From a bacterium (GTDB lineage: Bacteria; Patescibacteriota; Minisyncoccia; JBBINA01): a DNA stretch of 64,000 bases. Both the position numbers and the translations under genes were made by a program. The stretch is taken from assembly GCA_037444125.1 (NCBI GenBank), contig JBBINA010000002.1:6272-70271 (forward strand), in the 5' to 3' direction. The notes under the pieces are model-generated. The model was not told the DNA's origin. It was given only the letters and a program-made list of their open reading frames with translations, and searched no databases. Shown here one piece after another: positions 1 through 41,135 of this stretch; positions within the stretch are counted from its first letter, which is position 1, and every line of letters begins with the position of its first letter.

Positions 1-342
1 TTTGGCCAACAATGAATTGGCTTTATTATTATAAAAAACTTTTAAGACATTTATAACTTTTTGTAAAACTGGCAAATATTCAAAATCCAATAAATCGGTT
101 AAAAATATCCTTTTGCCCAACTCTCCCTTTCTCCCCATCGATTTCCTAAACAAAGTCGAAAAACCAAGTTTTGGCTTGGTTGAAAAAAAAGAAACGCTAA
201 TCCTGTGTTTTACTAAAAGCTCGCCCAATTCTTTTACATATCTTTCGGCTCCACCTTTTAAATAGGAATATTTATTTATAAGCAAAACCTTCATAAAATA
301 AAATAAACTAGAGTTGTTATATTATATAAATATTTTATATAA

Positions 343-1587
343 ATGTCAATATCACACCTCACAATCTTGCTTTCGCTACTAACTTTTAGGTCATTTTTAG
401 ATATATTTTCCGACCTCACAATACTTAGCATTCAAAACGGCAAAATTGAATTAAATTTAAATTCTCTACTGTCTATTATTAGTTTTTTCTTCGGTCTTTA
501 CATCATTTGGTTTAACCGCAATAGCCTAATTGGATTACTAAAAAAACCAACAATTCAATGGCTTTGTCTTGCTATATTTTCGTTTTTAATCTACTCGAGT
601 CTATCTATAATTTTTTCTGAATATCAAATTGAATCCACGAGAGAAATTATTAGACTCTTTTCAACTTATCTTCTTTTTTTTAGCGGACTTCTACTAATCA
701 ATTCTGAAAAAAAATTTCTTTATACTATTAGTTTCATATTAATAAGTTCGGCGGTACCTTTTATGTTTTCTCTATATCAAATTGTTACCAATGATCAAAA
801 ATATGAATCGCGAATTTATGGCACTTTTTTTCATCCTAATCCTTTTGCTTTCTATCTTTTTCTGCTTCTTGCTTTAGGTATATCTTTATTTTTTTCTAGC
901 CATAAATCTATTGAACATCATAAAAAAACCCTGCTTTGGTTTCTAATAGTAATTTTAGGCTTAATTTTCTTTACTCAAACACGAAGTATCTGGTTTGCCA
1001 CTGGTTTATTTATACTCTTAATCGGTATACTTAAAAATTATAAGGTTTTCTTTATAACTATTTTGCTGGGCTGCCTGCTAGTAATCTTTCAAGCTGTTTT
1101 TGAAGGGTCAACTATCGAAAGCCGCGTTTTTGACATACTTTATAATCCTTTTAATTCGCTTATCTGGCGTTTGGAAATTTGGCAAGACGCTTTCAATTTG
1201 GCGCGCGAAAAATTTATATTCGGTTATGGCTTAAATACGGCTTCATCTAAACTAGAATATTTAAGAGGCATTGCATTAGGTTCAACTGAAATTCATAATG
1301 ATTATTTAAAAGTATTTTTTGAACTTGGCATCATCGGCTTATTTCTTTATCTTTTGATATTTATTTTACTTTTACGCTCGCTGGTTCAACCTCAAGTCGA
1401 TTATAATAAAAAATTAGTTTTCGGTATTTTTATTGGTATTATTCTTGTAATTTCTTTTTTTGATAATGTGCTTCGCGTAACTGCCTTTCAATACATTCTG
1501 TGGACTATACTGGGAGGTATTTTAGGGGCTTCATTTAATAAAATCAATAAACAAAAAGTCCCTACAACTGACATTAGTCAATCATAG
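343..1587 (+). CDS. O-antigen ligase/polymerase family membrane protein (Wzy_C-like)
   Basis: Polytopic membrane protein with a HNDYLKVFFELGIIGL segment typical of the O-antigen ligase/Wzy_C family. Sits beside Wzz-like and GT4 genes. Confidence 0.55.
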   Translation: MSISHLTILLSLLTFRSFLDIFSDLTILSIQNGKIELNLNSLLSIISFFFGLYIIWFNRNSLIGLLKKPTIQWLCLAIFSFLIYSSLSIIFSEYQIESTREIIRLFSTYLLFFSGLLLINSEKKFLYTISFILISSAVPFMFSLYQIVTNDQKYESRIYGTFFHPNPFAFYLFLLLALGISLFFSSHKSIEHHKKTLLWFLIVILGLIFFTQTRSIWFATGLFILLIGILKNYKVFFITILLGCLLVIFQAVFEGSTIESRVFDILYNPFNSLIWRLEIWQDAFNLAREKFIFGYGLNTASSKLEYLRGIALGSTEIHNDYLKVFFELGIIGLFLYLLIFILLLRSLVQPQVDYNKKLVFGIFIGIILVISFFDNVLRVTAFQYILWTILGGILGASFNKINKQKVPTTDISQS

Positions 1588-1599
1588 GGACTCCTATAA

Positions 1600-2304
1600 C
1601 TATAAGTAGGACCGCGCACTCTTATGCGGCGGCGGTATCATAGTTGAGCGCACTCGCGGTAACTTTACAGAGCCGACAGGCACTACATCTAAATCTTCTG
1701 CCTCCATAACCAACTCATAACCCCACTTCCCGTCTTGATCAAGGAACGGTAAACCGATTTTTTGAGATTCAATAGCTACGCAACCAAACAACTTATCAAC
1801 CTGATGCCCAGCAACCCGCCTTACCGCCGGATCCCAAAACTCAATCCAAAAGCGATCCCTGAACGACCCCTCAGGTAAAAACAATAATGATCGTAACGGC
1901 TCAGGGGTCATCTGACGCATCTGCTCAATCTGCCCTACCGCAAAGGGGTTGTGGTAGGTGAAAACAACATCCCCGAACCACTCCCTCGTGTAATAATAAT
2001 ATCCCCAGGAAAGCACTGAATTTGCTTCCCCGAGAACATTCCACTTCCAGAAACTTCTTAAAACAACGACCGTGCCATCAAGCACCGACAAGTCGCTATA
2101 AATAACTTCTCGGCCGCTCGGATCCGGAACCTCAACCGCACATCTTACTGAAACGTTGATACGCACTACCTCGTCTATTAATGCCACACGAATATTGGCA
2201 TCGCCCAACTCGTCCTTCACATCAAAGCCGAAAACGAAAACCGATCCGCCCAAGAAAATCACTAACAATATCGATAAAACAAAAAACTTCTTGCCGGGGG
2301 TCAT
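1600..2304 (-). CDS. hypothetical secreted protein, compositionally foreign (GC-rich)
   Basis: Local GC is about 50-57% against about 30% background. True start is probably the ATG giving MTPGKK, preceded by AAAGGAGGTG 7 nt upstream. The N-terminus has a signal-peptide-like hydrophobic segment. No family recognised. Confidence 0.5.
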   Translation of the reverse strand: MTPGKKFFVLSILLVIFLGGSVFVFGFDVKDELGDANIRVALIDEVVRINVSVRCAVEVPDPSGREVIYSDLSVLDGTVVVLRSFWKWNVLGEANSVLSWGYYYYTREWFGDVVFTYHNPFAVGQIEQMRQMTPEPLRSLLFLPEGSFRDRFWIEFWDPAVRRVAGHQVDKLFGCVAIESQKIGLPFLDQDGKWGYELVMEAEDLDVVPVGSVKLPRVRSTMIPPPHKSARSYL

Positions 2305-2351
2305 TTTGACCCACCTCCTTTTCAAATTAAAATGAACTTTCTGCCTGCTTT

Positions 2352-2382
2352 CTAATCACTTTTTAAGTTAAAAAGTGATTAG
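2352..2382. terminator. perfect 13-bp stem / 5-nt loop hairpin (ctaatcacttttt-aagtt-aaaaagtgattag) downstream of the Wzz-like gene
   Basis: Palindrome read directly from the sequence. It lacks a clear T-run, so it may be a terminator or a processing/regulatory hairpin. Confidence 0.35.
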
Positions 2383-2392
2383 GTAGCGGGCT

Positions 2393-3013
2393 TTATATTA
2401 ACTTCACTTTCATTGACATTAAACTTTCTTTTTCCCGCTTTACAATACTATAAAAACTGACAAAAATCAAGAGAAAAAATATACCAGCGGCTATATAATT
2501 AAAAAACTTATGCTTAATAGTAATATACGGCGGGTCTATTGGTTCTATTTTTAAATTATCTTCTTTACCATGATATTTGGAAAAATTTTCTTTTAAAGCA
2601 TACAAAACAGCACTGTTTAAAGCCAAAGAATCAAAATCATTTCTATCTTTAGTGGTAATTTTTATAATGCCGGTAAAAGGCACTACAGAAACCTTAACTT
2701 TTTTTCGCCAATTAGTCATCCTTACTTCCGGGTTATTATATTCACTTTCCTGCAAACGGAAAGGCAACGAGTAAACTGTATTAATAAAAAATTGGGTGTA
2801 AATTATTTCCTTGACTAAACGAACTAATACTTCTTGAGATTTTACCAATGAGTAAGCATCGATTTCCTTGTTCTTCTGGATAATAATAATTTTACTTTCA
2901 GCCACATGATCAAATCCTGACATCAAAGAAATAGCTATGCCAATCATAAAACCAGATATTGAAACCAAAAATATTCGCAACCAGTTATTTTTTATGAATT
3001 GCATTAAATCCAC
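2393..3013 (-). CDS. Wzz-like polysaccharide chain-length determinant (PCP) family protein
   Basis: TM helix at the N-terminus and at the C-terminus with a soluble domain between. Short PCP-like architecture next to Wzy-like and GT genes. Confidence 0.4.
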   Translation of the reverse strand: MDLMQFIKNNWLRIFLVSISGFMIGIAISLMSGFDHVAESKIIIIQKNKEIDAYSLVKSQEVLVRLVKEIIYTQFFINTVYSLPFRLQESEYNNPEVRMTNWRKKVKVSVVPFTGIIKITTKDRNDFDSLALNSAVLYALKENFSKYHGKEDNLKIEPIDPPYITIKHKFFNYIAAGIFFLLIFVSFYSIVKREKESLMSMKVKLI

Positions 3014-3044
3014 GATAGTTTGCTAAAATATTAGATTATGTTTA

Positions 3045-3073
3045 TTGACAATTAAAATGTATTCTAGTATAAT
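3045..3073 (+). promoter_or_regulatory. sigma70-like promoter TTGACA-N17-TATAAT upstream of the GT4 gene
   Basis: Exact consensus hexamers with a 17-nt spacer, about 130 nt upstream of the 3203 start. Confidence 0.5.
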
Positions 3074-3202
3074 GTAATCAATTCCTAAATAATATAGCAT
3101 ATTACACTAAAAATGTCAATAGACAAATTGACTTGTGAAAGTAAAAATATAATATACTTAGGATTTCTAACTCATTCATAACCATTAAAATAGTATGATA
3201 AT

Positions 3203-4324
3203 ATGATAATCGTCGGACAAAAATCAAATAATCAAATTTATGGAGGTGTCGAAAAGTATGTCTTCGAACTATCAAATTTTCTAGCACGCCATAAAGAACC
3301 AGTTACTCTACTTAATCGCAAGGGTTATCTTGCTATCAAACCAACAAGTCGAAATATTAAATTTATACAGGTACCAACAATACACTCTAAATACCTTGAT
3401 GGCCCAATCTATTCTTTCCTATCTGCCTTCTATTGTATTGGTATTAACGACAAAATTATAAATGTCCAAGGTATTGGCCCGGCATTTTTTTTACCCTTAT
3501 TTAAAATACTAAATCCATCTAAAAAAATAATTTTTACTTTTCATTGCCGTGATTATTTCCAGGAAAAATGGTCATCATTAGGAAAAATATTTCTAAAAGC
3601 CGGAGAATATCTAGGTTGCAAATTAAGTGATTATGTAATAACTGTCTCAAGCAATCTAGCCAATTATGTAAAAAACAAGTATGGCATAAAGCCAATAGTC
3701 ATTAAAAACGCTCTTGAGCTTAAATTAATATATTCCACAAAAAACAACCCTTCATTGTTCAAAAAATTAAAAATTGAAAAATATAAATACTTTCTAGTTA
3801 TTTCGCGCTTAGTGAAACACAAAAACATAGAAATTATTTTAAAACAATTTGCTACCCAAAAAATGAGCCCAAAAAGAAACTTTAAGCTAGTAATTGTCGG
3901 GGACGAAAAATACGAAAACCAATATAAGGCTTACCTTAAAAATCTTGTCATTGAATCAAATGCAAAAGATAAAATAATTTTCACGGGCAAACTAAAAGGC
4001 AACTATATCTATAAACTAATAAAATATGCACGGGGTATTTTAAGCGCCTCTTCTTATGAGGGATTATCTTATGCCTTAATTGAAGCTGCCGCCTTCGGTA
4101 AACCGATTTTATGCCGCTCTCTTCCTTCAAATAAAGAAATATTAGACAAGTATGGATATTATTTTAACAAAAATAAACGCAGTTTTATCTTACAAGTAAA
4201 TTCATTTATAAAAAATTGCCTTAAAAAAAACGCGGTCAATAAATCACTTGTAAACCGTATAAAAAAATTCTTCAATGCTGACAAAAACTTCCAAAAAATC
4301 TTGGAAATATTAAATAACCTATAA
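3203..4324 (+). CDS. glycosyltransferase family 4 (GT-B, GT1 superfamily)
   Basis: C-terminal EGLSYALIEAAAFGKPIL matches the E-x7-E motif of retaining GT4 enzymes. Confidence 0.7.
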   Translation: MIIVGQKSNNQIYGGVEKYVFELSNFLARHKEPVTLLNRKGYLAIKPTSRNIKFIQVPTIHSKYLDGPIYSFLSAFYCIGINDKIINVQGIGPAFFLPLFKILNPSKKIIFTFHCRDYFQEKWSSLGKIFLKAGEYLGCKLSDYVITVSSNLANYVKNKYGIKPIVIKNALELKLIYSTKNNPSLFKKLKIEKYKYFLVISRLVKHKNIEIILKQFATQKMSPKRNFKLVIVGDEKYENQYKAYLKNLVIESNAKDKIIFTGKLKGNYIYKLIKYARGILSASSYEGLSYALIEAAAFGKPILCRSLPSNKEILDKYGYYFNKNKRSFILQVNSFIKNCLKKNAVNKSLVNRIKKFFNADKNFQKILEILNNL

Positions 4325-4337
4325 CCACTTTTCCCTC

Positions 4338-4365
4338 TTGACTTCAGTTAAAAATTGTCTATAAT
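4338..4365 (+). promoter_or_regulatory. candidate rRNA promoter TTGACT-N16-TATAAT
   Basis: Consensus-like hexamers about 155 nt upstream of the 23S 5-prime processing stem. Confidence 0.4.
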
Positions 4366-4519
4366 GACTGTAGAAAATGAATATTTTAATTATACATAAA
4401 ACTAGAAGTGCAAGCGGGTAGCTTATAATTGAATTTATATTCATTTTCTAAAACCGCTTGTATCAGGCGGTTTTTAAGGTTCTCTATATTCTAAAAAAAA
4501 CGATTTCGTCTATAAATGA

Positions 4520-7604
<3,085 letters not shown>

Positions 7605-7647
7605 CCTTTTATAGACTAAATCAATTTTTTAAAAAAAATAATCAAAA

Positions 7648-7764
7648 GCCCCTTGGTAACAATACTGAAGAGGAAACGCTCCTTCTCATCCCGAACAGGA
7701 AAGCTAAGCTCTTCAAGGCCGATGATACTCGTTTAACGGGGAAAGTAGGTAATTGCCAAGGGGC
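7648..7764 (+). rRNA. rrf: 5S ribosomal RNA
   Basis: Terminal helix gccccttggtaa...ttgccaaggggc and an internal ccgaacagg...gatgatactcg pattern typical of 5S. Followed by a T-run. Confidence 0.85.
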
Positions 7765-17192: not shown

Positions 17193-18617
17193 CTAACCAT
17201 TTTTTAAACTCTCATAAATTAAATTATCAATTTCTTCTCGCAATTTTTTGATTTGTTCTTTGTATTGATTACTTTTTTCTTCCCGTTGCTGTATTTCTAA
17301 AACAATTTTTTGTTGAGTTTTTTTATCAATTGCCGGAATAGGGAGTTTTCTAATAGACCAGTTTGTAATTTCCTTTTGGCTTTTACCAGTTGAAAAAGCC
17401 CAGAAGAAATCTGAACCAAAAGAAGATTGTAAATAGTATTTTAGAAAAAGGGCATCATCTAAATTATTGAACTCTATAACCGCAAGGTGGTGAGACGGAA
17501 TAAATATTCGTTCATCATTGGTGTCTTTATTAAAAATAATACATTTTCCAATTGTACCAGAGCGGGTCAAGATTAAATTATTCTCATTTATTGCAATGTT
17601 TTTATATTGTTCTCCTATAACATCTTGTAAGAAAATTGGTTCTTCTAAATTCAATTCGTTTGAGGAAATATTATTGACTCTTAAATATACAAAATTTGTA
17701 TCATAAGAAGAATAATATTTCTTTGGGATATACTCTCCACTTCTAATTTTTTTAACATATTTAGTAAAAGGTATGTAATTTCCTTTTAAATTTTCTTTTA
17801 CAAATATAGGCAATTCATCCTCAATAAATCTACAAAGGTAAGTTCTAATACTTAACCAGTTTGATTTAGATATATTTTTAAAATTATTTTTCAAATTGTA
17901 TTCTTCATCTCTTTTTAGTTTTGGTCTTGTTGAATATCCATTCTTAACAAAAACATCATCAATGATATCTTGAATAGATTCAATTTTTTTCTTAGTAGAT
18001 CGAATTTTGTTTTCTATTTCTTCTATTTTTTTAACTATTGTTATTTGCTTTTGATAATTGATAAATGGAACTTTCATTGCAAGAAAATCTGGTATGTGTA
18101 TTCGTGGATGAGTTTTCCCTGATGTTAAAAGTTCTAAATCACTTCTAAAACTTTTATGAAGAAGCAAATACATTAGAAATTTGATGTCCCAACTTCTGCT
18201 TTTTAATCTATAACCAATTAGTTCTGTAGTTCCTATAATTTTTTTTGCTTTATCATTTAAAAAGCAGTGGCCTTTTTCAGGGGTGAGTTTTGAATATACA
18301 ATATCAGCATCATTGAAAAAGGTTTTGTCAGATCCTATCTCTGCAACCACAATCTCATTTTTTATAGCACCAAATCCAGGTTCAATGTCATCTAAATCGG
18401 CTAAAATCATTTCTTCTTCTAATTCACCCTTTTTTATTGTTGTAGTATTAGCAAGGTCTAAAATCTTACCTAACGGCATACCTGTTTTTCTGCTCTTTTT
18501 TAATAATTCAGTAATATTATTTTTTTCATCTTTAAAATATCTGTACTTAGAATCTAGACGTAATTGTTTTTGAAGTCCTATTTTAAAAAAGTTTGTACTA
18601 AAAATTATCTGTTCCAT
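17193..18617 (-). CDS. hsdS: restriction-modification specificity subunit (HsdS-like, two target-recognition domains)
   Basis: 474 aa. Conserved central and C-terminal coiled-coil repeats are typical of HsdS. Overlaps the MTase gene by 13 nt. Confidence 0.75.
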   Translation of the reverse strand: MEQIIFSTNFFKIGLQKQLRLDSKYRYFKDEKNNITELLKKSRKTGMPLGKILDLANTTTIKKGELEEEMILADLDDIEPGFGAIKNEIVVAEIGSDKTFFNDADIVYSKLTPEKGHCFLNDKAKKIIGTTELIGYRLKSRSWDIKFLMYLLLHKSFRSDLELLTSGKTHPRIHIPDFLAMKVPFINYQKQITIVKKIEEIENKIRSTKKKIESIQDIIDDVFVKNGYSTRPKLKRDEEYNLKNNFKNISKSNWLSIRTYLCRFIEDELPIFVKENLKGNYIPFTKYVKKIRSGEYIPKKYYSSYDTNFVYLRVNNISSNELNLEEPIFLQDVIGEQYKNIAINENNLILTRSGTIGKCIIFNKDTNDERIFIPSHHLAVIEFNNLDDALFLKYYLQSSFGSDFFWAFSTGKSQKEITNWSIRKLPIPAIDKKTQQKIVLEIQQREEKSNQYKEQIKKLREEIDNLIYESLKNG

Positions 18618-20971
18618 TTTACATATTTTCTTAAATAATCCAAAATAGTTTTTGGATTATTAGTATCGATATAAATTATTCTGTCTGAATACTCTCCTTC
18701 CGAATTAAAAAGTTGATTAGGACGTTTTTCTTCTTTGCGAACCCCTCGCTTATAGCCAATTTCTTCAGCGTGAGCCATAAATATAGGGTAGTCCTGCTCT
18801 TTAGATACATTTTTAAACACCCACCATTCAAGATCGGCTTCTTGTATATTTTCTTCATATTTCTCTTTAAGTTCTTTAAATGATAGTTTTTTATCTTCAG
18901 GGTCAAAATTTTCTTCTCCTAAAAGTTGAATTAAAAGTTCTATAAATTTCTTTTTATTTTCTTCCTTCTCTGATTTTAATAATTTTTTTATTTCAGAAAT
19001 CAGTTCTTTGTATTCATCTTCGTACTTTGACCATAACTTATTCCACTCTTCTACCTCTTCTTTGGTTTTCTTTTGCGCGAAAAGCAAGCTCGTTTTTGTT
19101 TGAGTATAAGGTGCGAAAGCTAAATGAGGTAATGAAACAACCGCTTTAATCCAAAAATATTTATAAAGGAAGAGCCGGATATCTCTATTGCTGGTTGTAT
19201 CAAAAACGCTTTCGGGGAGAACAACGCCCATTCGCCCGCCTTCTCTCAATAATTGATACCACCTTTCTATAAAAAGATTTTCTGTATCAACTTCCAATTC
19301 TTTGTTATTTTTAAGAGTCTTTGCTATTTTTTCTCCTCTCAAATAAAGCCTTGGAAACTGCTTAGCTGTATCTCTGTCTACGGTCACACTAAATGGTGGA
19401 TTAGAAACTACTACATCAAATTGTTCGTTTACAGGAAATGAATAAACTTTGCTTTCATGTTTTTCTGCTAATTTTCTGTGATAATTACTAAAATCAATTA
19501 AACCGTCGGCAGGCTCAATATTTGCGGAACCATCGCCATGGCCAACCATATTTACTTTTGAAGCCATCGCCAAATCAGAATTTATTTCAATACCATAAAT
19601 ATATTCGTCTGCCCAGGCATTTTTGCGCAATCTTTGAAAATTTTTGTCTAAAAATTCTTGTGTTGCGTAATCTTTTTTGATTTTGCCCTCCTTTTCTGCT
19701 TCCTCCTTAACTTTATCAATTAGTTTCATCGCGTGAATTAAAAATGTCCCAGAACCGCATGCAGGATCAATAATATAAGGCAATCTCGTTTCATTGTTTA
19801 TTAAGTTTAAAGTTAATTCATCTAATCTTAGAGCATACAGGATAAAATCAACTATATTCGGATGTGTAAGATATTGTCCTTTTGTTTGTTTTAGTTCTTG
19901 CCTAACAATTTTCTCAAAGAAATCACCGAGAACATCATACTTATTTTGTAAGAAAGATATGTCTTGCAGCACCTCAACAACATATTTTACTTTTGGGGCA
20001 TCAAAAATTATGTCTTTTACCTTCTCTAAATCTTCATCTTTATAATTTAATAATCGTTTTAATGCACAATCTTTATATTTTCCAGTTTTAGAATCTTTCT
20101 CGCCTTTATAAAGCTTGTTAATTCTTTTATAGGTTTTTTCTGGGGGTTCTTGGTCTAATCCTTCAAAGAAAATTTGAAATTGGTAAGGTTCGCCTTCTGG
20201 CGTTGTTTTCTCGTCGTAAATTTTTGCCAAAAACATCCCGATTAAATTAAAGAAAAGCTCGTTTTGATACTTACCCCCACCCCATAAAATATTGTGGAGT
20301 TCTCTTGCAATCCTATCTAATTCTTCCTTTTTTACATCTAATCTTAAATCTTTTTCTCCTCCTTTTATAAATGCCGGCGGCTTATCTTTAATTTCATAAT
20401 TTTTTGGAATATATCTTAAATTAGGACGACCAGCAGCCTCCCAATCATCAAAAGATTTAAATTTTGTGTAATCTATTGTCTCGTATTTTTCTTGTAATTT
20501 GCCATCATCGTCATACCAACGAGTGTAATAAATAAGAAATTTTAAAGTTCCTTTACCCTTATCTTCTGTAGCAGCAGGTTCAAAAAGTTGGGTTTTAATT
20601 GAAGATTCAAAATATCTTTCGTAATCATCTCGGGGCTTTAACTCAAAAAGCATAAATGGATTATGGTTCTCATTATAAACAACGATATCCATTTTAATAT
20701 CTGTTCTTTTGTGAGGATGCCCGATCTTTCGATATTTCTCTAATTCAATTTTATCTGGTCTGTAGTTATACTTTTCTATTAAATCTACATACAGTTCTGC
20801 TCTAACTTGCTCCTCCGGATCTAAAAAATTATCGGTATACCCTTGGGCTAAATAAGTAATTTTGAAACCATCGTGACTAATCAAAATATAACCCTTTTCT
20901 TCCCCGAGCTTAACTAAGAAAGATTTTTCACCAGTAATAATTTCTTCTTTTTGTGGTTTGTATTGTGCCAT
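18605..20971 (-). CDS. N6-adenine DNA methyltransferase (gamma class) with N-terminal PD-(D/E)xK nuclease-like domain
   Basis: Motif I DPACGSGTFL and motif IV NPPF are present. The N-terminus has a D-x13-ELK pattern (MDIVVYNENHNPFMLFELKP). 788 aa is larger than a typical HsdM. Confidence 0.7.
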   Translation of the reverse strand: MAQYKPQKEEIITGEKSFLVKLGEEKGYILISHDGFKITYLAQGYTDNFLDPEEQVRAELYVDLIEKYNYRPDKIELEKYRKIGHPHKRTDIKMDIVVYNENHNPFMLFELKPRDDYERYFESSIKTQLFEPAATEDKGKGTLKFLIYYTRWYDDDGKLQEKYETIDYTKFKSFDDWEAAGRPNLRYIPKNYEIKDKPPAFIKGGEKDLRLDVKKEELDRIARELHNILWGGGKYQNELFFNLIGMFLAKIYDEKTTPEGEPYQFQIFFEGLDQEPPEKTYKRINKLYKGEKDSKTGKYKDCALKRLLNYKDEDLEKVKDIIFDAPKVKYVVEVLQDISFLQNKYDVLGDFFEKIVRQELKQTKGQYLTHPNIVDFILYALRLDELTLNLINNETRLPYIIDPACGSGTFLIHAMKLIDKVKEEAEKEGKIKKDYATQEFLDKNFQRLRKNAWADEYIYGIEINSDLAMASKVNMVGHGDGSANIEPADGLIDFSNYHRKLAEKHESKVYSFPVNEQFDVVVSNPPFSVTVDRDTAKQFPRLYLRGEKIAKTLKNNKELEVDTENLFIERWYQLLREGGRMGVVLPESVFDTTSNRDIRLFLYKYFWIKAVVSLPHLAFAPYTQTKTSLLFAQKKTKEEVEEWNKLWSKYEDEYKELISEIKKLLKSEKEENKKKFIELLIQLLGEENFDPEDKKLSFKELKEKYEENIQEADLEWWVFKNVSKEQDYPIFMAHAEEIGYKRGVRKEEKRPNQLFNSEGEYSDRIIYIDTNNPKTILDYLRKYVKWNR

Positions 20972-21135
20972 ATTTATTTCACTTATTTTTTTTATTAATT
21001 CTATTGAATTCTTTTTTCAACCGCTTAATCTCGGCTAAAAGTTTTTCTTTTGATTGATTTTGTATCTTTTTTATAGCCATAACTTTTTACTTCAATAAAA
21101 AATCATCACAATCTAAAGAACTTTAGCTAATCTTG

Positions 21136-21207
21136 TGGACCCGAGGGGACTCGAACCCCTGACCTCCCGCGTGCAAGACGGGCGTTCTACCGCTGAACTA
21201 CAGGCCC
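21136..21207 (-). tRNA. tRNA-Ala (anticodon UGC)
   Basis: Cloverleaf folded by hand: acceptor GGGCCUG with a G3:U70 pair, anticodon loop CUUGCAC, T-arm GGTTCGAGTCC. CCA is not encoded. Confidence 0.9.
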
Positions 21208-23138
21208 TTTTCTAAATTTAATCGGTTAAGCTCTCGTCTTGCCTCAATATTATATTTATCTATCTTTAAAGATTCAATTAAATATTTCCGCGCCTCATTT
21301 AACTCGCCATTATTTCTATGTATTAACGCCAGAATATAATAAGCCTGCGACAGCTTTTCTATTAATTGAATGCTGGCGCTGCGAGCAACAATCATATCGC
21401 TAGGATAATAATCTAAAATACTCTTAATTACCCTTACGGCATCGTTTATCCTGTTATTTAGATAATAAAAAAACCCTAAATTGATATAATACTCGGGATT
21501 ATTATATTTATCAAGGGAAACGGCTTTTAAAAAATTATTCTCGGCGGAAACTAAATCTTTCTTTTCCATTAAAATTAATCCATTCAAGCTGTAAACCCTT
21601 GCATTATAAATATTATACCTCAAAGACCGAGAAACGAAATTCTCGGCTAATTCTAATCTTATGGAATCAGATGTCTGACGATAAATATTGTAATTAAGAA
21701 GGGCAAGCTGATAATTGTTTTCTTCATTATCAAAAAACCGAAGCGAATCGACAAAACTTCTTTCTGCTTGCTTAAACTGTTTAGTTTCAACATAAAATTT
21801 GCCCAACTCGAAGTAATGATGAAACCAATAACTTTTAAAAGCGCTTTTACCAAACCAAAAAATAATACCTAAACATATCAAAGTCGCTAAAATTAATTTT
21901 TTACCTGAAAACTTCAGGATATCCTTTTTAAATAAGTGCGTCAATAAACCTATATAAACCCCAAAAATAAAGAATAGACCAATGTAATGCCAAGAAACCT
22001 CAAACAACATATTCAATAAAAAAGAAAGGAAACCTAGAAAAACAAAATAAAAAAATTCGGAACACTTTTCCTGTCTAAGTTTTTTCGCTATTTTAAAAAC
22101 AAAAAGAACTGTAAATATTAAAAAAATTATACCTAGCAAACCAAGGTCAGATAGCATTTCAATAATTATATTATGCGGGTAAATAGAATATCCAACCGGG
22201 GAAACCTGATAAAATGGCAAAATTATTTTGTAAGTTCCCGGTCCTGTACCTTTTAAAATATTATCTTGAAAAATACGCCAACCTTCCACGATAAACTCAA
22301 CTCGCCCGCGCAAAGACAAGGTATAATTAAATTTAAAGCGGCCCAAAATATTCTCATACAAATTTGTGTACTGAAGAGAAATTAAAAAAAGAAAAATAAA
22401 TACAAAAAACATAAATAAAGGCAAAAGGCTTGGCATTTTTTTACGGCGCTTTAAAAAATAAGAAACTCGATTATTTATAAGTCTATCTTTAAACAAAAGC
22501 GCAAAAATCACGCTAGCTAAAAAAAAGCTAAGCAAACCCCCTCGTGATAATGTTAAAAGAAAAGCGCTAATAAAAATAACTAACTGAAAATTCCAAAAAA
22601 TATTATTTTTGGCTTTTTGTTTTAAATAATAAGAGATTGGCAGTATTAACAACAAAAACGAAGCCAAAACATTAGGATTATTAAAAACTGAACTAAAATG
22701 ATCTTTATCAATAAACAAATAATAATAATATCCAATAACCACCACCACTAAACCTAAGAAAACAAAATATTTAAGTATATTAATGATAGTTTTACTAGTA
22801 AGGTCAAAAGAGTGTATGATAAAAACCACCGCAAGAAAGACGCTGATGTAAAAAAAACTTCGTAGTGATTCAAACCTATTCACAGAAAATTCAACTGCCA
22901 TCAAATAAACAGCAACAATAATCGCTAAAATAATTAAAAATGTCTTATTGTAAGTTAACTTCTTGGAAATAACCAAATTTCTTAAAAACAAAAATGCTAA
23001 TAACGCAGCTAAAATAAGACTAAAACTTTCAGTAAAATAATAAGCCGCTTGCCGCGCAAAAATTACTGTAATACCAATAAGCAGGCAAACAAAAAAAACA
23101 CTAAGATTTTTATAAATGAATTTATCTCTTAACTCCAT
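21198..23138 (-). CDS. O-antigen ligase-like polytopic membrane protein with C-terminal TPR repeats
   Basis: About 12 TM segments followed by several TPR-like repeats. The last codons overlap the tRNA-Ala 5-prime end by 10 nt. Confidence 0.5.
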   Translation of the reverse strand: MELRDKFIYKNLSVFFVCLLIGITVIFARQAAYYFTESFSLILAALLAFLFLRNLVISKKLTYNKTFLIILAIIVAVYLMAVEFSVNRFESLRSFFYISVFLAVVFIIHSFDLTSKTIINILKYFVFLGLVVVVIGYYYYLFIDKDHFSSVFNNPNVLASFLLLILPISYYLKQKAKNNIFWNFQLVIFISAFLLTLSRGGLLSFFLASVIFALLFKDRLINNRVSYFLKRRKKMPSLLPLFMFFVFIFLFLISLQYTNLYENILGRFKFNYTLSLRGRVEFIVEGWRIFQDNILKGTGPGTYKIILPFYQVSPVGYSIYPHNIIIEMLSDLGLLGIIFLIFTVLFVFKIAKKLRQEKCSEFFYFVFLGFLSFLLNMLFEVSWHYIGLFFIFGVYIGLLTHLFKKDILKFSGKKLILATLICLGIIFWFGKSAFKSYWFHHYFELGKFYVETKQFKQAERSFVDSLRFFDNEENNYQLALLNYNIYRQTSDSIRLELAENFVSRSLRYNIYNARVYSLNGLILMEKKDLVSAENNFLKAVSLDKYNNPEYYINLGFFYYLNNRINDAVRVIKSILDYYPSDMIVARSASIQLIEKLSQAYYILALIHRNNGELNEARKYLIESLKIDKYNIEARRELNRLNLEKGL

Positions 23139-23180
23139 TTGAACATATTATATCACTACAAAAAAAATTTATATATAAAA

Positions 23181-23208
23181 AAACGCCTCAGAGGCGTATA
23201 TTTTTTAC
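23181..23208. terminator. hairpin acgcc-tcaga-ggcgt flanked by A/T runs (bidirectional rho-independent terminator) downstream of the 16S 3-prime end
   Basis: Read directly from the sequence. Confidence 0.4.
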
Positions 23209-23347
23209 TACTAATTAAACTAACTATATATTTTTTATACGCATTTTAAGTTCCACGACGAAGCAGATTTTTATAGATAATCTGCAAAATCTTTGAACAA
23301 TTTTATCAATTGTTCAAGTCGACGCTTCAAACACATAAAACGTGTTT

Positions 23348-24848
23348 GAAAGGAGGTGATCCATCGCCAGCTTCCGCTAGCGATGCCTTGTTACGACTTA
23401 TCCCCTATCACCGGGCCCACCATCATCCCGCAGAAAACGGTCTTTCCGGTGTTCCCAGCTCTCTTGGATTGACGGGCGGTGAGTACAAAGCTCGAGAACG
23501 TATTCACCGCGGCATTCTGATCCGCGATTACTAGCGATTCCAGCTTCATGAGGTCGAGTTGCAGACCTCAATCCGAACTAAGGAATGTTTTTTGGGATTA
23601 GCTCCGCCTCACGACTTCGCAGCCCTTTGTACATTCCATTGTATCGCCTGTGCAGCCCAGGTCATAAGGGCCATGCGGATTTGACGTCATCCCCTCCTTC
23701 CTCCTGGTTAACCCAGGCAGTCTCCCTAGACATCTAAAACTAAGGATGGGGGTTGCGCTCGTTACCCGACTTAACGGAACACCTCAAGGCACGAGCTGAC
23801 GACAACCATGCAACACCTCGCCATGATGTCCTTGCGGAAATCTAACTTTCGTCAGATTATCACCATGACATTCCAGACCTGGTAAGGTTTATCGGTTACC
23901 GTCGAATTAAGCCAGACGATCCACCGCTTGTGCGAGCTCCCGTCTATTCCTTTGAGTTTCGGCCTTGCGGCTGTACTACCCAGGCGGGAGACTTAACGCG
24001 TTAGCTTCGCCGCTGAAAGGGTCGACACTTCCAACGACTAGTCTCCATGGTTTAGGGCGTGGAATACAAGGGTATCTAATCCTTTTTTATGCCCACGCTT
24101 TCGTCCATGACTGTCAGGTGGCACCTAGTGAGTTGTTTTCACCTTTGGCGTTCCCCTGGGTATCAACGGATTTCACCCCTACTCCCAGAGTTCCACTCAC
24201 CCCTTTGCCCCTCTAGAAATACCGTTTGAGAAGCAGCTTAAAACTAAAGTCTTAAGATTTAACTCCTCACAAGTATTTCCAGCTGCGGACGCTTTACGCC
24301 CAGTAAATCCGGACAACGCTTGAGGTCTCTGTATTACCGCTGCTGCTGGCACAGAGTTAGCAACCTCTTATTCCTGAAGTACCGTCATTCCGAACTTGCG
24401 TTCGGAATTCTTCCCTCAGAAAAGCAGTTTACACCCCGAAGGGCTTCTTCCTGCACGCGGCGTCACTCGGTCACCCTTTCGGGCATTGCCGAATATTCTC
24501 GACTGCTGCGACCCGTAGGCCTCCGGGCAGTGTCTCAGTCCCGGTGTTGGGGAACAGCCTCTCAGCCCCCCTACCCGTCATAGGCTTGGTGAGCCGTTAC
24601 CTCACCAACTACCTGATAGGCCGCAGGCCCCTCTTGAAGCGGATTGCTCCTTTAATGAAAACCGGAATTAACCGATTCTCATACCATCTTGTATTAGCCC
24701 CAGTTTCCCGGGGTTATTCAAAACTTCAAGGTAGGTACCTACGTGTTACTAACCCGTTCGCCACTATGCGCGCTCAACACGCGCATCGTACGACTTGCAT
24801 GCCTTATCCACGCCGCCAGCGTTCGTCCTGAGCCAGGATCAAACTCTC
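23348..24848 (-). rRNA. rrs: 16S ribosomal RNA
   Basis: Reverse complement begins agagtttgatcctggctcag and ends ggatcacctcctttc. Universal blocks are present (gtgccagcagccgcggtaatac-like, 1492r region). Length is about 1501 nt. Confidence 0.95.
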
Positions 24849-24930
24849 TTATAAAAGTAGCATAAATATTCGTCTGTGGAACTTAAAATAAGTATAAACT
24901 AGCCAAATTTCAAAAGAACTTTTATTTAAA

Positions 24931-26945: not shown

Positions 26946-27266
26946 TTAGAAATCTTTTTTTGTAAATCTATTATACTTTATTTTTGCAATTAGAAATGGC
27001 GATATAGTTAAAAGTATACTTATAAATAGCTCAGTATATATCATTCCATCATCAAATATTCCAACGTAAGTATAATTATTAACCCGATCAACCAACTCTA
27101 CATAAATAAACCAAATTAACGCTCCTACAGCTCCGGACAATATATAACCCACCACAATATGCCTCCATAAAACAGGCTTAAACCTACGCCAAATAATCAA
27201 GAACGGCAAAATAACCAAAAAAACAGAAACCGTTGTAAATAGATACTGAAAAACCTTGGGCGACAA
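26946..27266 (-). CDS. small membrane protein, paralog A (TTG start)
   Basis: 106 aa with 3 predicted TM segments. The first 38 codons and the upstream region are identical to paralog B. Confidence 0.5.
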   Translation of the reverse strand: MSPKVFQYLFTTVSVFLVILPFLIIWRRFKPVLWRHIVVGYILSGAVGALIWFIYVELVDRVNNYTYVGIFDDGMIYTELFISILLTISPFLIAKIKYNRFTKKDF

Positions 27267-27489: not shown

Positions 27490-27909
27490 TTATAAATCTC
27501 CCGTCAATTTACCCAAACCCCAAGCAAACAAATATCCCCAAATAATAGCTGATAAAACAAAAACAAAAATTGAAATAAATAACGAGATAAAAAATCTTTT
27601 TTTTGTGAATTTTCCATAAATTAGTTTTGTTACAAAAAATGAAGAAATAATAAACAAAAAATTACTCCATATATAGGCATAGCTTACCCCCTCTAAAAGT
27701 GCGTAGGAATAATCAATATCTCTAATTTTGTTATCTAGAAATACAAATATATACCAAATAGTAACTCCACAAAAGATCGTTATCCCACATCCTGCCACAA
27801 TATGCCTCCATAAAACAGGCTTAAACCTACGCCAAATAATCAAGAACGGCAAAATAACCAAAAAAACAGAAACCGTTGTAAATAGATACTGAAAAACCTT
27901 GGGCGACAA
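27490..27909 (-). CDS. small membrane protein, paralog B (TTG start)
   Basis: 139 aa. N-terminus is identical to paralog A. The C-terminus is diverged but similar in pattern (IW.I.V, KFTKK). Confidence 0.5.
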   Translation of the reverse strand: MSPKVFQYLFTTVSVFLVILPFLIIWRRFKPVLWRHIVAGCGITIFCGVTIWYIFVFLDNKIRDIDYSYALLEGVSYAYIWSNFLFIISSFFVTKLIYGKFTKKRFFISLFISIFVFVLSAIIWGYLFAWGLGKLTGDL

Positions 27910-33565: not shown

Positions 33566-35374
33566 TTACATCTTTTTGTAATATGCGTTTTTAACCATTA
33601 CGCCTCCGGCAAAATAATGGCCTAAGTCAGTTTTGAGAGTATATGTTCTCACCCATATCTTCCTCTTAGATATCTGTGTAACCTTTTGAAGCACTAGCTT
33701 GCTATTTTCGCTATCTAAGATTGTCAAAAAATCACCTACTTTAATATCCCGCGCAGGCAGCCAAGCATCATTAACCCAAACTAAATGATTACCGGTTAAC
33801 TCAAGATCAAAACTATCTCCTTTAAGTCGATAAATAGTTAAGCTTGAGGGTTCTTTTGACCAAACGGCCTCTACTGTTTGATTAATAATATGCCCTTCTT
33901 TAAAGCCATAGATTGTATCTTTAGACCTTATATCTTCTATTTTCTTACCCGACCCTGAAATTATAGTGTATCCAATTACGCTTCCCCCTCCACCACCACT
34001 TCCTGGAGGCGGTGGTTCATCAGAAGGTGGCGGTTCTTCTATGTCGCTACAACGTATACCAATACATTCGCATCGAATAAATGGTCGACATAAACAATCT
34101 TCGCCAATACATTGGTCAATAAATACTCTAACTTCTACCTGCCTACTGATTTCGCTATTATCCCCATAACAAGTTAAATTATAAGTTGTAGTATACAATG
34201 GACTTACTTGCTGTGAACCCATAACAGGCTTATTGCCGCTCCATCCTCCTGAAGCAACACAAAAATTAGTATTAGACGACGACCAAATTAAAGTAGAACT
34301 TTCTCCCTTTTGAATACTAGTTGGATCAGCGCTAAATGTTAATGTAGGTGGTAGAGGATTAATTTTAATCTGGCAGCTGGTGGAAACAGTTTGCGTGCCA
34401 GAACTTACTTGCACTGTAGCTGTGTAATTCCCTGAGCTTGAAAATGATTTAGTGCAGGACGAATTACTTCCTGTGCAAGCTCCTGACCAGGAATAAGTAT
34501 AAGTTCCTGTTCCTCCTGAAGCTGAGGCAGTAAAGGTAACTGGTTGATTGACTAGGGCAGGATTGGGTGAAGCAGAACAAGAAACGCTGAGTCTAGGGAT
34601 AACCCTTACTACCACTGATTCAACACTGCTGCCGCCTTCTCCAGCGCAAGATAAAATATAGGTTGTAGTCAGAGTAGGTTTAATTATTTGTGTTCCGCTT
34701 GTATTTTGAGCTTCCTTCCAGCCTCCGGAAGCACTACAGCTATCAGCATATTGCGTTGACCAAACCAGAATAGAACTGTCGCCTTCCACAATAACATCAG
34801 GGCTAGCTGAAAAAGTGATTACAGGCGGCGGGACTAAAACAATAATAGTTTCATCTTCCGGGAAACTACTATAAGTCTGAGAAGATTCAACAGACTTATT
34901 GTCTTTTTTGAAAGTAATTTTCAAATCTATTTTAATATCTTTACTGCCGGGATCATTAGAAATATTAGTAAAATTTAGCGACTCAACCAGAAAATAATTT
35001 GCATTTATTTTTTTCCTCACATAACTTTGACCTGCTCCTTCTTCAAGATATAAATCATTATTAACCGTGGAAAAAATAGTTGGGTCGCGCACTGATTCAC
35101 TATATCTTAATATTAACCTGTTACTTGTGCTAGCTGGAAGCGGCTCCAAAACAAAATCTGCCTCTTTAATTTTATTTTCAATAAGATTATAAATTGATTC
35201 AAGATCATCGGATAACTCCTTCTCTATCCTAATATCATGCGCCTTGGGAAAAAATGTCAAAAACGAACCTATGACGCTTACAGCAATAATTGAAAAAATA
35301 CCAAGCGCAATACTCACTTCCATTATAGTAAAACCGTTTGTTTTCAGTTTGCAATAATCTCTGTCTTTCATCAT
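33566..35374 (-). CDS. type IV pilin-like protein with Ig-like repeats, Cys-rich/Pro-Gly linker and C-terminal Hint (intein/Hedgehog-like) domain
   Basis: N-terminal prepilin motif NGFTIMEVSIALGIFSIIA. Two copies of an about 85-aa repeat (TFSA.P..I..G.SS.L.WS...C.ASGGW...TTY.L.C) flank a PKD-like repeat (YTYSWSG). The C-terminus has Hint blocks: S465 VIGYTIISG (A), LTGNHLVW (B, TxxH), DIKVGDFL, VRTYTLKTDLGHYFAGGVMVKN (F/G). Confidence 0.55.
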   Translation of the reverse strand: MMKDRDYCKLKTNGFTIMEVSIALGIFSIIAVSVIGSFLTFFPKAHDIRIEKELSDDLESIYNLIENKIKEADFVLEPLPASTSNRLILRYSESVRDPTIFSTVNNDLYLEEGAGQSYVRKKINANYFLVESLNFTNISNDPGSKDIKIDLKITFKKDNKSVESSQTYSSFPEDETIIVLVPPPVITFSASPDVIVEGDSSILVWSTQYADSCSASGGWKEAQNTSGTQIIKPTLTTTYILSCAGEGGSSVESVVVRVIPRLSVSCSASPNPALVNQPVTFTASASGGTGTYTYSWSGACTGSNSSCTKSFSSSGNYTATVQVSSGTQTVSTSCQIKINPLPPTLTFSADPTSIQKGESSTLIWSSSNTNFCVASGGWSGNKPVMGSQQVSPLYTTTYNLTCYGDNSEISRQVEVRVFIDQCIGEDCLCRPFIRCECIGIRCSDIEEPPPSDEPPPPGSGGGGGSVIGYTIISGSGKKIEDIRSKDTIYGFKEGHIINQTVEAVWSKEPSSLTIYRLKGDSFDLELTGNHLVWVNDAWLPARDIKVGDFLTILDSENSKLVLQKVTQISKRKIWVRTYTLKTDLGHYFAGGVMVKNAYYKKM

Positions 35375-39272: not shown

Positions 39273-41135
39273 TCAACTTTTGGCAATTTCTCTACCCTCT
39301 ATCTTGCTGGCTAGCTTTAACAACATACTTGCTGACCACAATTGAATAGGCGAACCATTGGGATTAAAAGTTCCGGCATCGGAAAGTTCACTTGAAAAAG
39401 CTAAACCATTAAACCAGAAAAAATCACTTACAAGCTTCTTATATATTGTTAGGGCTTTAGCAATATATTTTTTAAAATCCAACAAGCAAAAAGCAGTAAT
39501 AGCATTTAAAAAAAACCAGCTGTCCCCATTATGATAACTCAAGGGGTTTTCGCCTGTATGGCAGGATTGATAAGAAAGACTACTTCTTGCCACGCTTGCT
39601 AATCCTCCCCAATCAAGCCAAAGATTTTCTAATGTTTTATCTATGACTCTCTGCCAATCAACCTTGCTCAGTAGATCAGGAAAAAAATAATAAGCCAAAA
39701 AAATATTGGGTCTAATTTCAGTAAAATAATTGGCTCTATCGGCTAATACCAAACCATTCCAAAATGTTTTTAGAATATGTTCCTGACGGACCCTTAACAT
39801 CTTAAACCACTTAGGATTTTTACTTAGTCTACCAGCTTGTTTTAACAAAGCCAAAATCAAGGCCTCAATTTCAATTAGGGATCCGTTTCTCTCCTTAAGA
39901 GAATCCATCCACTGCGAATAAGCTGACACAGAAGAAAGAGAAAGTATATTGCCCTTCAAATTACCATCAATAAATTTTTTTAACCACTTGAAGAATATTT
40001 CTAATGCAAGCTCTTTTAAATTGCCATCAATCTTATTCCGCGAACCAAATGTCTCTAGTATTTTTAGGAAAAAAATTAATGTGCCATCGTAGCTTGGCGC
40101 CTCAGAAAAAGTTAAATCTAGATTAAAATAATTAGGCAAAAATGTATTCCTCTCGACAAAATCCAAACGCCATTTAAGAAAGTCGCAAAGCTCTTTTTTT
40201 GATAGAACTTTTAATAAAACATCAAGAGAAATAGCTTCATCGCGCAGCCAAAACTGAGTAAACCATGGTAAACCAGCATAAAAAAAGGGTATACCGCCAA
40301 CCATTACTTTGAGGCGCGATATTGATTCCTTAATCTCTTGCTCCAAAAAAGAATAGCTAATATCGTCAACACTAACATTGATAGGCTTAAGGGTAAGCGT
40401 TTGAACAAAAGATGCGTCTTTGTCAACCTCCATATTCTTTATCAACTGATTTAAATTTTTCTCCGCTGTTATTAAAAATCCTTTGGAAACAAAAGCAATT
40501 TTCTTACAAGTATATAAAGTATCAGGAAACGAGCGCCGATGCCAATCATATAAATATTCCCTCCTTACCCATTCATCAAAGATCTCAATATCTCCCAAAA
40601 AATCTCCAGTTATTGCTTTTATGCCAATAAACAAAGTATAGCTATTAGCATTTTGCGTATAATCATACTTTAAAATAATTGATTGGGTATTTTTGCTTAT
40701 AATCTCAAAATGTCTACCAAATTCTGGATATTCAAAAATTCTTCTAGGATCTAAAAAAAGCGTTTGCTTTTTCCTAACCGACAAACAATAAATGAACGCG
40801 TTCTCGCTGGTAATGAATTTAAAACCCTCATTAACCTCTTTATACAGCCTCCCACCTATATTGCCAAAAACATTAAGCAAACCTATGGGTCTAGTATTTT
40901 CGATTTCAATATCCTCTAAAATCTTAAAAAGTTTCCCATCTAAATTAAAATAAAGACCCTGAAAACGAGTAGCAAAATTATCACTCTCTAAAAAAAATCC
41001 ACCAATACCATTACTTACGCATATAAAACGATTACCACTATTACTATCAACTTCTTTAGTTATCAGTCTATTTTTATACAGATGTGCAAGAATCATAATA
41101 TTACTTAACCTCATATTACTTAACCTCCTTCGCAA
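39273..41135 (-). CDS. glycogen debranching enzyme-like protein (amylo-alpha-1,6-glucosidase / six-hairpin glycosidase family)
   Basis: C-terminal SYHNGDSWFF-type segment and context with glycogen synthase, GH57 and GalT-like genes. Family assignment is from pattern memory only. Confidence 0.45.
   Translation of the reverse strand: MRRRLSNMRLSNIMILAHLYKNRLITKEVDSNSGNRFICVSNGIGGFFLESDNFATRFQGLYFNLDGKLFKILEDIEIENTRPIGLLNVFGNIGGRLYKEVNEGFKFITSENAFIYCLSVRKKQTLFLDPRRIFEYPEFGRHFEIISKNTQSIILKYDYTQNANSYTLFIGIKAITGDFLGDIEIFDEWVRREYLYDWHRRSFPDTLYTCKKIAFVSKGFLITAEKNLNQLIKNMEVDKDASFVQTLTLKPINVSVDDISYSFLEQEIKESISRLKVMVGGIPFFYAGLPWFTQFWLRDEAISLDVLLKVLSKKELCDFLKWRLDFVERNTFLPNYFNLDLTFSEAPSYDGTLIFFLKILETFGSRNKIDGNLKELALEIFFKWLKKFIDGNLKGNILSLSSVSAYSQWMDSLKERNGSLIEIEALILALLKQAGRLSKNPKWFKMLRVRQEHILKTFWNGLVLADRANYFTEIRPNIFLAYYFFPDLLSKVDWQRVIDKTLENLWLDWGGLASVARSSLSYQSCHTGENPLSYHNGDSWFFLNAITAFCLLDFKKYIAKALTIYKKLVSDFFWFNGLAFSSELSDAGTFNPNGSPIQLWSASMLLKLASKIEGREIAKS

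Follow-up and report, generated by a model that had tools for sequence, protein, structure and literature searches.

The window analyzed here is a 64,000-nucleotide (nt) stretch of a bacterial contig (JBBINA010000002.1, positions 6,272 to 70,271 of the forward strand; Patescibacteriota, Minisyncoccia), with an overall guanine plus cytosine (GC) content of 33.1%. Near its start lies gene X, an open reading frame (ORF) at 1600–2304 that encodes the 234-amino acid (aa) protein quoted in the initial annotation and that is found on the minus strand. Together with the gene for a Wzz-like membrane protein that precedes it, X makes up a two-gene operon within a surface-glycan locus characterized by Wzy_C, GT4, and DUF4012 genes (Table 1). 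The AT-rich host probably belongs to the candidate phyla radiation, is probably ultra-small, and may be Moranbacteria-like. We find that X is an orphan gene of atypical composition that was probably acquired laterally. X, its Shine–Dalgarno (SD) sequence, and its GC excess are old and shared among lineages, with vertical inheritance within an AT-rich clade.

To place X in the context of its relatives, about eight X sequences from four lineages were gathered by cluster look-ups and neighbor-guided fetching. These lineages are denoted W (the window), B (L002, L004, and L010, with X copies that are 97.6 to 99% identical among themselves), C (L011 and L012 plus L009; L009 and L011 share 89% identity), and a fourth lineage represented by L001. 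Window positions 1–5091 recur at 100% identity, in reverse complement, in a second assembly, L003 (run SRR11582170), which reaches past the window start. Read in the orientation of these loci, W, B, and L001 share the arrangement GT4a(−)/Wzz-like(+)/X(+)/Wzy_C(−)/GT4b(+)/DUF4012(+); the short, partial contigs of lineage C show GT4a/Wzz-like/X. In all four lineages, the Wzz-like gene is found directly upstream of X. Its stop codon directly abuts the AGGAGG of X in B and C (14 to 15 nt before the ATG), and thus the two genes form an operon. The Wzy_C and GT4 genes adjoin X in conserved synteny, as in Wzx/Wzy-dependent polysaccharide assembly loci. The upstream protein had initially been called Wzz, a resemblance that consists of two terminal hydrophobic segments recognized by eye and is therefore one of topology only: the protein has no match in Pfam or NCBIfam, Wzz itself (PF02706) has no match in five homologs even at E values up to 10, and a profile scan of the genome contigs with the Wzz-like alignment returned no match.

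Table 1. Coordinates of gene X, its expression signals, and the adjacent genes in the 64,000-nt window
Feature	Position	Strand	Details
Gene X, 234-aa orphan protein	1600–2304	−	ATG 2302–2304, TAG 1600–1602
Shine–Dalgarno sequence AAGGAGGT	2313–2320	−	GGAGG at 2314–2318, 9 nt before ATG
Predicted initiation-region hairpin	2296–2315	−	Last GG of SD and UG of AUG paired (GG.GGGUCA/UGACCC.CC)
Strong stem-loop, 14 perfect pairs plus extension	2343–2391	−	−24.6 kcal/mol, z = −6.7; window lineage only
Terminator-like hairpin and T-run	1544–1595	−	Consensus scan: 19-pair stem, tail TGTTTATTGA; inverted repeat I7
Sigma-70-like promoter TTGACA-17-TATATT with TG	3091–3119	−	Consensus match only; candidate promoter of the Wzz-like/X operon
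12/12 consensus promoter for the divergent GT4 gene	3045–3073	+	Consensus match only
Wzy_C-family polymerase/ligase-like membrane protein	343–1587	+	PF04932, E = 1e-20; converges on X
GT4 glycosyltransferase GT4a	3203–4324	+	PF00534 and PF13439; diverges from the Wzz-like/X operon
Second GT4 gene GT4b, 5′ part	1–294	−	Leaves the window at its start; DUF4012 gene next in L003
Wzz-like (topology only) membrane protein, 203 aa	2393–3004	−	Hydrophobic stretch at each end; upstream operon partner of X

The composition of X was evaluated against the non-rRNA ORFs of the window with a length of 80 aa or more, which number 48 including X. The GC content of X is 47.8% (0.54, 0.37, and 0.52 at codon positions 1, 2, and 3; GC1, GC2, and GC3, respectively), compared with 30.2% in the Wzy_C gene (343–1587), 29.5% in the upstream ORF (2393–3013), and 29.9% in GT4a (3203–4324). 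The elevation reported in the initial annotation is therefore real over the full ORF (47.8% versus 29–30% in the neighbors), but its size had been overstated: in place of a GC content of 50 to 57%, "nearly double" that of the surroundings, the ratio to the neighbors is 1.6-fold, and the best 200-nt interval in the X region reaches 51%. A two-change-point fit identifies a GC-rich block at 1609–2251 (49.3%, versus 29.7% outside), with support for the left boundary at 1552–1614 and for the right boundary at 2248–2326. X is the only ORF with a GC3 greater than 0.33, the other 47 ranging from 0.19 to 0.32, and the 705-nt interval at 0.478 is 5.4 standard deviations (sd) above the non-rRNA mean (0.317, sd 0.030; next-highest such interval, 0.431). 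A sharp shift had been described at both ends. This description holds at the 3′ end, where the X stop at 1600 lies close to the convergent Wzy stop at 1587, but not at the 5′ end, where the GC-rich composition fades within the signal-peptide codons (boundary ≈2251) and an AT-rich 88-nt spacer follows between the X start and the stop of the upstream gene at 2393. The relative synonymous codon usage of X correlates with that of the host at 0.23, so that X stands out from the host in codon usage as well as in base composition. The second-highest non-rRNA local GC (0.43 at ≈33943) is found in a gene for a 602-aa PKD-domain protein (33566–35374, minus strand), where it stems from amino acid composition (GC2 of 0.449) and not from GC3.

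X is a real protein-coding gene, and purifying selection acts on it. Between W and B, the proportion of nonsynonymous differences (pN) is 0.16 to 0.17 and that of synonymous differences (pS) is 0.72 to 0.74, with a ratio of nonsynonymous to synonymous substitution rates (dN/dS) of ≈0.06 to 0.08. The identity of the window copy to its 72 to 74% identical homologs is 0.75, 0.90, and 0.47 at codon positions 1, 2, and 3, respectively. We also considered X as the target of a diversity-generating retroelement or of multicopy gene conversion and rejected this candidate, as the 64-kb window contains no second copy longer than 15 nt of any X segment and no paralog; a reverse transcriptase was not specifically searched for.

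The strong SD noted initially in front of X, at an ideal spacing and not evident on the neighboring genes, is confirmed (Table 1). On the minus strand, the start context consists of AAAGGAGGTG, GGTCAAA, and ATG, or AAAGGAGGTGGGTCAAA-ATG when written through. When 47 ORFs were scanned, allowing any candidate start in the first third of each, a strong SD at a plausible start was found in two, X and the ORF at 39273–41135. The latter, on the minus strand, encodes a GDE_C amylo-alpha-1,6-glucosidase and carries GAAGGAGGTTAAGTAATATG at its seventh codon. The 3′ end of the 16S rRNA retains the anti-SD (CACCTCCTTTC/GGATCACCTCCTTTC, including CCTCC). W and B have the arrangement AGGAGGTGGGTCAAA(A)ATG in common, and the longer AGGAGGTGGGTCAAA(A)ATGACCCCC, which covers the SD, the spacer, and codons 1 to 3, is invariant in these two lineages; C differs only in having one A fewer in the spacer, and L001 has AGGAGG.

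Several RNA structures are predicted around X. The initiation-region hairpin folds at −11.4 to −12 kcal/mol (z about −2) across W, B, and C and could gate X translation or couple it to that of the upstream gene; we treat it as a lead only, because its bases are invariant and offer no covariation to test. The far stronger stem-loop at 2343–2391 is located in an insertion of ≈70 nt specific to W, which separates X from the Wzz-like gene. It was considered as a repeated mobile element, a candidate rejected on finding no further copy in the window. The terminator-like hairpin lies directly after the X stop, within the 3′-terminal part of the Wzy gene, which converges on X.

Alignment of the X copies and null results in family searches bear out the initial description of a signal-peptide protein of no recognizable family in a glycan locus. 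X is predicted to have an N-terminal signal peptide or anchor (approximately residues 1–26), followed by an aromatic-rich domain of ≈190 aa and a Pro-rich tail ending in RSYL; the mature protein would comprise ≈208 residues. By inspection of the alignment, the signal region consists of MTPGKK and FFVLSILLVIFLGGSVFVFG, with AVA in B and AGA in L001 preceding the conserved FDVKDE, and displays the basic n-region, hydrophobic h-region of ≈20 residues, and small residues at −3 and −1 expected of a Sec signal. Two Cys residues (C55 and C175) are invariant, and the aromatic motifs LRSFWKWN, SWGYYYYTREWFGD, EFWD, and DKLFGC are common to all X copies. A word-indexed search of 5.8 billion clusters found three clusters (homologs P0002 and P0003), and an hmmsearch of 1.84 billion representatives with a three-sequence profile retrieved only the family's own cluster, giving a handful of X sequences in total among ≈15 billion proteins. 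X has no match in Pfam, NCBIfam, PHROGs, or PADLOC, the last of which lends nothing to the "immunity-type factor" first suggested; nor was there a match in JGI metagenome contigs and IMG/VR or, by tblastn, in phages and plasmids. A sequence-profile search of the PDB yielded chance matches only (E ≥ 0.48). The AlphaFold2 models are unusable, with a predicted local distance difference test score of 35 for the full-length protein (three sequences) and 43 for the mature part (five sequences), and Foldseek comparison of these models with the PDB gave no match below E = 1. From these comparisons, in which neither a family nor a fold was matched, X represents an orphan family. A relic of a GT4 glycosyltransferase (EX7E region) was considered on the basis of six weak tblastn matches (E of 0.012 to 0.6), all on the GT4 motif ETFGLIALEA..GKPF, which resembles DKLFGCIALEAQKVGLPF of X. 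This candidate was rejected, given an hhalign probability of 11% over 31 columns and no Pfam glycosyltransferase match at E values up to 10.

With low confidence, gene context leads us to propose that X, probably a secreted or membrane-anchored protein, has an extracytoplasmic accessory role in Wzy-dependent surface-glycan assembly. We suggest this role because of the signal peptide, the two invariant Cys, the aromatic motifs, the shared operon with a bitopic membrane protein, and the adjacency to Wzy_C and GT4 genes. X would work with the copolymerase-like protein and the Wzy-type enzyme on the external side of the membrane, and would probably contact the glycan through its conserved aromatic motifs.

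The GC content of X is 47.8% in W, 44.3 to 44.6% in B, 48.7% in C, and 57.7% in L001. GC3 is 0.42 to 0.52 in the three AT-rich lineages, where the flanks have a GC content of 27 to 32%, compared with 48 to 56% in L001. Between W and B, the proteins of the six cluster genes differ by 12 to 37%, and synonymous sites are at or near saturation (pS of 0.56–0.76; fourfold p-distance of 0.47–0.66). The dN of X between these lineages (0.18) lies inside the range of the neighbors (0.07–0.26). X identities of 83% (B–C), 79% (W–C), and 74% (W–B) have the same rank as those of GT4a (75%, 68%, and 66%, respectively), and the X tree, ((B,C),W), agrees with the GT4a tree. X is GC-rich at the same site in W, B, and C, and must therefore have been present, and already GC-rich, in their common ancestor.

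Presence and absence in relatives, a check proposed in the initial annotation, does not reveal a patchy distribution: X occupies the same position in W, B, C, and L001 and is absent only from the distant L007 and L008, which have Wzz-like homologs (34–37% identity) beside DUF4012. We also examined 80 loci with DUF4012 homologs (L013–L092), found by DUF4012 alignment at ≈24 to 38% identity and mostly labeled Moranbacteria; tblastn of X against these loci detected no X, the matches being weak, nonsignificant, and inside GT4 genes. The labels of these 80 loci are mostly Moranbacteria or Moraniibacteriota, and their GC content ranges from 30% to 57%. A surprising number are labeled "uncultured Bdellovibrionales," with single Bathyarchaeia, Fimivivens, and Gammaproteobacteria, and are probably mislabeled candidate phyla radiation (CPR) bins.

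The explanation we favor, to which we give an even chance of being right, is that the gene arrived by transfer, or its allele by replacement, from a GC-richer relative before W, B, and C split, and that its amelioration is incomplete. X, or a replacement allele of it, would have entered the locus from an L001-like, higher-GC, more SD-using lineage carrying the same cluster; this entry would predate the divergence of W, B, and C, and X would since then have drifted only partly toward the AT-rich composition of its host. The L001 contig (11 kb, 51% GC) carries the six genes in the same order. Its X is, narrowly, the GC-richest gene on the contig and agrees with its host in codon usage (r = 0.59); the W copy agrees with neither genome in this respect. 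Between W and L001, X is 58% identical and the five neighboring genes are 23 to 40% identical, and the distance ratio d(W–L001)/d(W–B), calculated from few taxa, is 1.8 for X and 3.0 to 10.2 for the five neighbors. X is 2 to 5 times "too similar" to the L001 copy. SD-like motifs precede about four of 10 genes in L001 versus two of 47 ORFs in the window. At codon positions 1 and 2, the ratio of GC-to-AT (S>W) to AT-to-GC (W>S) changes is 42:27 in X versus 75:96 in the neighbors (Fisher p = 0.022). Finally, lineage B harbors a mer operon at 39 to 43% GC, indicating that such AT-rich genomes do take up GC-richer DNA.

A number of findings weigh against this explanation. No donor was found, and the sole homolog outside of the AT-rich clade is only 58% identical; furthermore, the shared intergenic position in W and L001 demands either homologous replacement or coincidence. 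Third positions were analyzed by two-state (S/W) maximum likelihood on a W/B/C star tree, with and without invariant sites and with shared branch lengths, as well as by star parsimony. Fixing g* to the neighbors' value of 0.258 gives a worse fit (twice the difference in log-likelihood [lnL] of 8.5, p = 0.0035), with a root GC3 of 0.71. When X and its neighbors share branch lengths, a stationary model is ahead by 2.8 to 3.2 lnL units with an equal number of parameters. Amelioration equals the stationary fit only with 15 to 17% invariant sites and an ancestral GC3 of 0.82 to 0.92, a root value that exceeds both that of the L001 copy (0.667) and what is expected from the 80 related loci (maximum of 57% GC). 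In addition, codon positions 1, 2, and 3 have each shifted by ≈36 to 46% from L001-like to host values, where a faster shift at third positions is expected. As to function, the assignment made above derives solely from gene context, with both structure models unusable.

The alternative that survives best, which we regard as tentative and on balance rather unlikely, is that the GC-richness of X is actively maintained and not fading, with a synonymous equilibrium at a GC3 of ≈0.48 sustained by selection or by GC-biased gene conversion. Selection might favor an SD-led, structured mode of initiation or, if X is a strongly expressed surface protein, certain properties of its mRNA; GC-biased conversion might occur where recombination is locally concentrated. 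A stationary GC of 0.49 fits the third positions as well as a free model (p = 0.31), to which the lnL advantage under shared branch lengths described above can be added, and the star-tree third-position counts in X are balanced (S>W 42, W>S 54), while those of the neighbors are biased toward S>W per site. However, parsimony is biased at saturated sites, yielding a GC* of 0.34 to 0.38 for the neighbors versus a real value of 0.26, and with invariant sites, amelioration fits as well or slightly better, such that the outcome of amelioration versus stationarity hinges on allowing such sites. Recent polarized substitutions are few, with S>W accounting for six of 15 in clade B and nine of 14 in clade C. 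In favor of maintenance, X uses G-ending codons against the host preference, with GAG over GAA in W, B, and C and AAG at least equal to AAA; AAG/GAG enrichment is not known as a usual mark of translational selection, however, and this counts against maintenance. The position of X as the GC-richest gene on the L001 contig as well, and the invariance of its SD, spacer, and first three codons between W and B (C lacking one A) despite saturated synonymous sites, are consistent with maintenance, but whole-gene RNA folding is unexceptional on either strand (z = −1.5), and a 25-point GC3 excess on a single gene is unusually large for selection or biased conversion. Maintenance also leaves the 2- to 5-fold excess similarity of X to the L001 copy unexplained.

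Differences between close strains that cluster inside X bear on the conversion variant. L009 and L011 are identical over 1050 nt save for one 3-nt indel and then differ by 19 mismatches in 115 nt (L009 1053–1167), and L002 834–876 has nine differences from L004 and L010 in 43 nt inside X. The short contigs L002, L009, and L012 end in or beside X, a pattern suggestive of hypervariability or recombination at the strain level. These observations have two possible sources: a recombination hotspot in X, which could raise GC by biased conversion, or strain mosaicism of the short metagenome contigs, such that the clustered differences could stem from chimeric assembly of strains. It is doubtful that selection or biased conversion keeps X GC-rich, SD-led, and hairpinned at its start codon in a genome of ≈30% GC that is nearly devoid of SDs. 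If true, X would be a surface protein with its own expression or recombination regime and a synonymous equilibrium apart from that of the chromosome.

We consider a recent horizontal acquisition from a higher-GC donor, as a new insertion between resident polysaccharide genes, to be very improbable. This was the proposal of the initial annotation, and the sharp compositional contrast, the unusual SD, and the absence of X from the distant relatives L007 and L008 are in its favor. However, X, its SD, and its GC excess are common to three lineages, at the same site, with flanks of 63 to 88% protein identity and saturated synonymous divergence, and X codiverges with its neighbors. Direct repeats, mobility genes, and phage or plasmid homologs are all lacking, and the codon usage of X resembles that of no identified donor. 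At the X locus, we found no meaningful flanking repeats, insertion scars, or integrase, and no tRNA near the junctions. A horizontal origin from a higher-GC donor is still the best explanation of the foreign-looking composition; what falls away from the proposal is the recent timing, together with the signs of mobility. Finally, an artifact is extremely improbable, be it a chimeric assembly or a GC-rich stretch that is a structured noncoding RNA: in AT-rich genomes, a GC island usually turns out to be rRNA or another structured RNA, and the only other GC-rich stretches in the window are its rRNA genes, but both junctions recur in L003 and, as diverged versions, in contigs of six or more further sequencing runs, which rules out the chimera that had been named as a possible refutation, and a structured or antisense RNA is rejected by the lack of an Rfam match within 1600–2300 even at E values up to 5, by folding of the 741-nt X region that is no better than that of shuffled sequences (z = −1.5 on either strand), and by substitutions that track codon positions.

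Other features of the window and its relatives stand apart from X. The rRNA genes are unlinked, with the 23S and 5S genes at 4528–7761 on the plus strand and the 16S gene at 23349–24854 on the minus strand, ≈16 kb away and in opposite orientation. The 23S match extends over 3070 nt versus a model of 2925 positions, and the gene may carry insertions. A gene for a 646-aa protein with Wzy_C and TPR domains (21198–23138) is found between the 16S gene and tRNA-Ala(TGC) in the region 21135–24854 on the minus strand. Two minus-strand ORFs of 106 and 139 aa (26946–27266 and 27490–27909) have an identical 25-nt upstream sequence, TAAAGGTTATATTTAATTTATTTAC, which suggests a local tandem duplication. The minus-strand gene at 18605–20971 encodes a probable type IIG restriction–modification enzyme, in which an HSDR_N-type domain is joined to an Eco57I-like N6-methyltransferase, and that at 54728–57973 (minus strand) encodes a 1081-aa protein with a Peptidase_S74 (endosialidase intramolecular chaperone) domain, known from phage tail fibers and spikes and here in a chromosomal context. 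In lineage B, L004 7317–9528 is a mercury resistance–like operon (HMA, MerT, and a MerA-like reductase) of 39 to 43% GC in a genome of ≈30% GC; in the window lineage, the equivalent site following DUF4012 is occupied by HTH_5 and DUF2024 genes (L003 7699–8271). This mer-like operon is a separate and more conventional foreign island.

X corrects a textbook inference, in that a GC island with an SD need not mean recent import. It is either a calibration case for slow amelioration in small CPR genomes or a rare gene-specific GC equilibrium. X also encodes a conserved orphan secreted protein linked to the glycan-assembly genes of presumed episymbionts, whose contact with the host probably depends on surface structures. 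The practical value of the finding is modest for now.

The closest analogy for the favored explanation is the amelioration of horizontally acquired genes, a model of which was reportedly put forward by Lawrence and Ochman in 1997. As in that model, a single gene differs from its host in GC, codon usage, and ribosome-binding signal, and X shows both a net GC-to-AT flux at nonsynonymous positions and an excess similarity to the copy in a GC-richer genome. PMC12455944 cites Lawrence & Ochman 1997 on horizontally acquired genes undergoing amelioration. X departs from the model in that its anomaly outlives synonymous saturation in three lineages, with no clear net decay at third positions, and in that it has no donor, mobility gene, or insertion scar and instead a GC-richer homolog at the same position in an equivalent cluster. 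A second comparison is to GC-biased gene conversion, to which Lassalle and colleagues are said to have ascribed, in 2015, a rise of a few GC3 points over many recombining bacterial genes. X resembles such genes in its raised GC3 and in the tract-like close-strain differences confined to the gene, but its excess amounts to ≈25 GC3 points on one gene, and the evidence for recombination comes from short metagenome contigs.

The O-antigen and capsule loci of Enterobacteria and streptococci, which are Wzx/Wzy-dependent, are compositionally atypical and recombine. The locus described here likewise contains a Wzy-family gene, GT4 transferases, an atypical GC content, and signs of allele exchange among strains. 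In O-antigen and capsule loci, however, the whole cluster is atypical and usually of lower GC, with serotype-specific genes of variable presence, whereas here one accessory gene is of higher GC, the transferases and Wzy are host-like, and the neighbor is Wzz-like by topology only. Finally, the window parallels SD-poor lineages that keep the anti-SD (e.g., Bacteroidia), in that nearly all of its genes lack an SD while the 16S rRNA keeps CCTCC. Some Parcubacteria subgroups are reported to lack the anti-SD motif (PMC9297842); unlike these, the organism of the window retains it. In contrast to both SD-poor lineages and these subgroups, X and one glucosidase gene here have a full 8-nt SD, which in the case of X is conserved across lineages and paired with a predicted start-codon hairpin.

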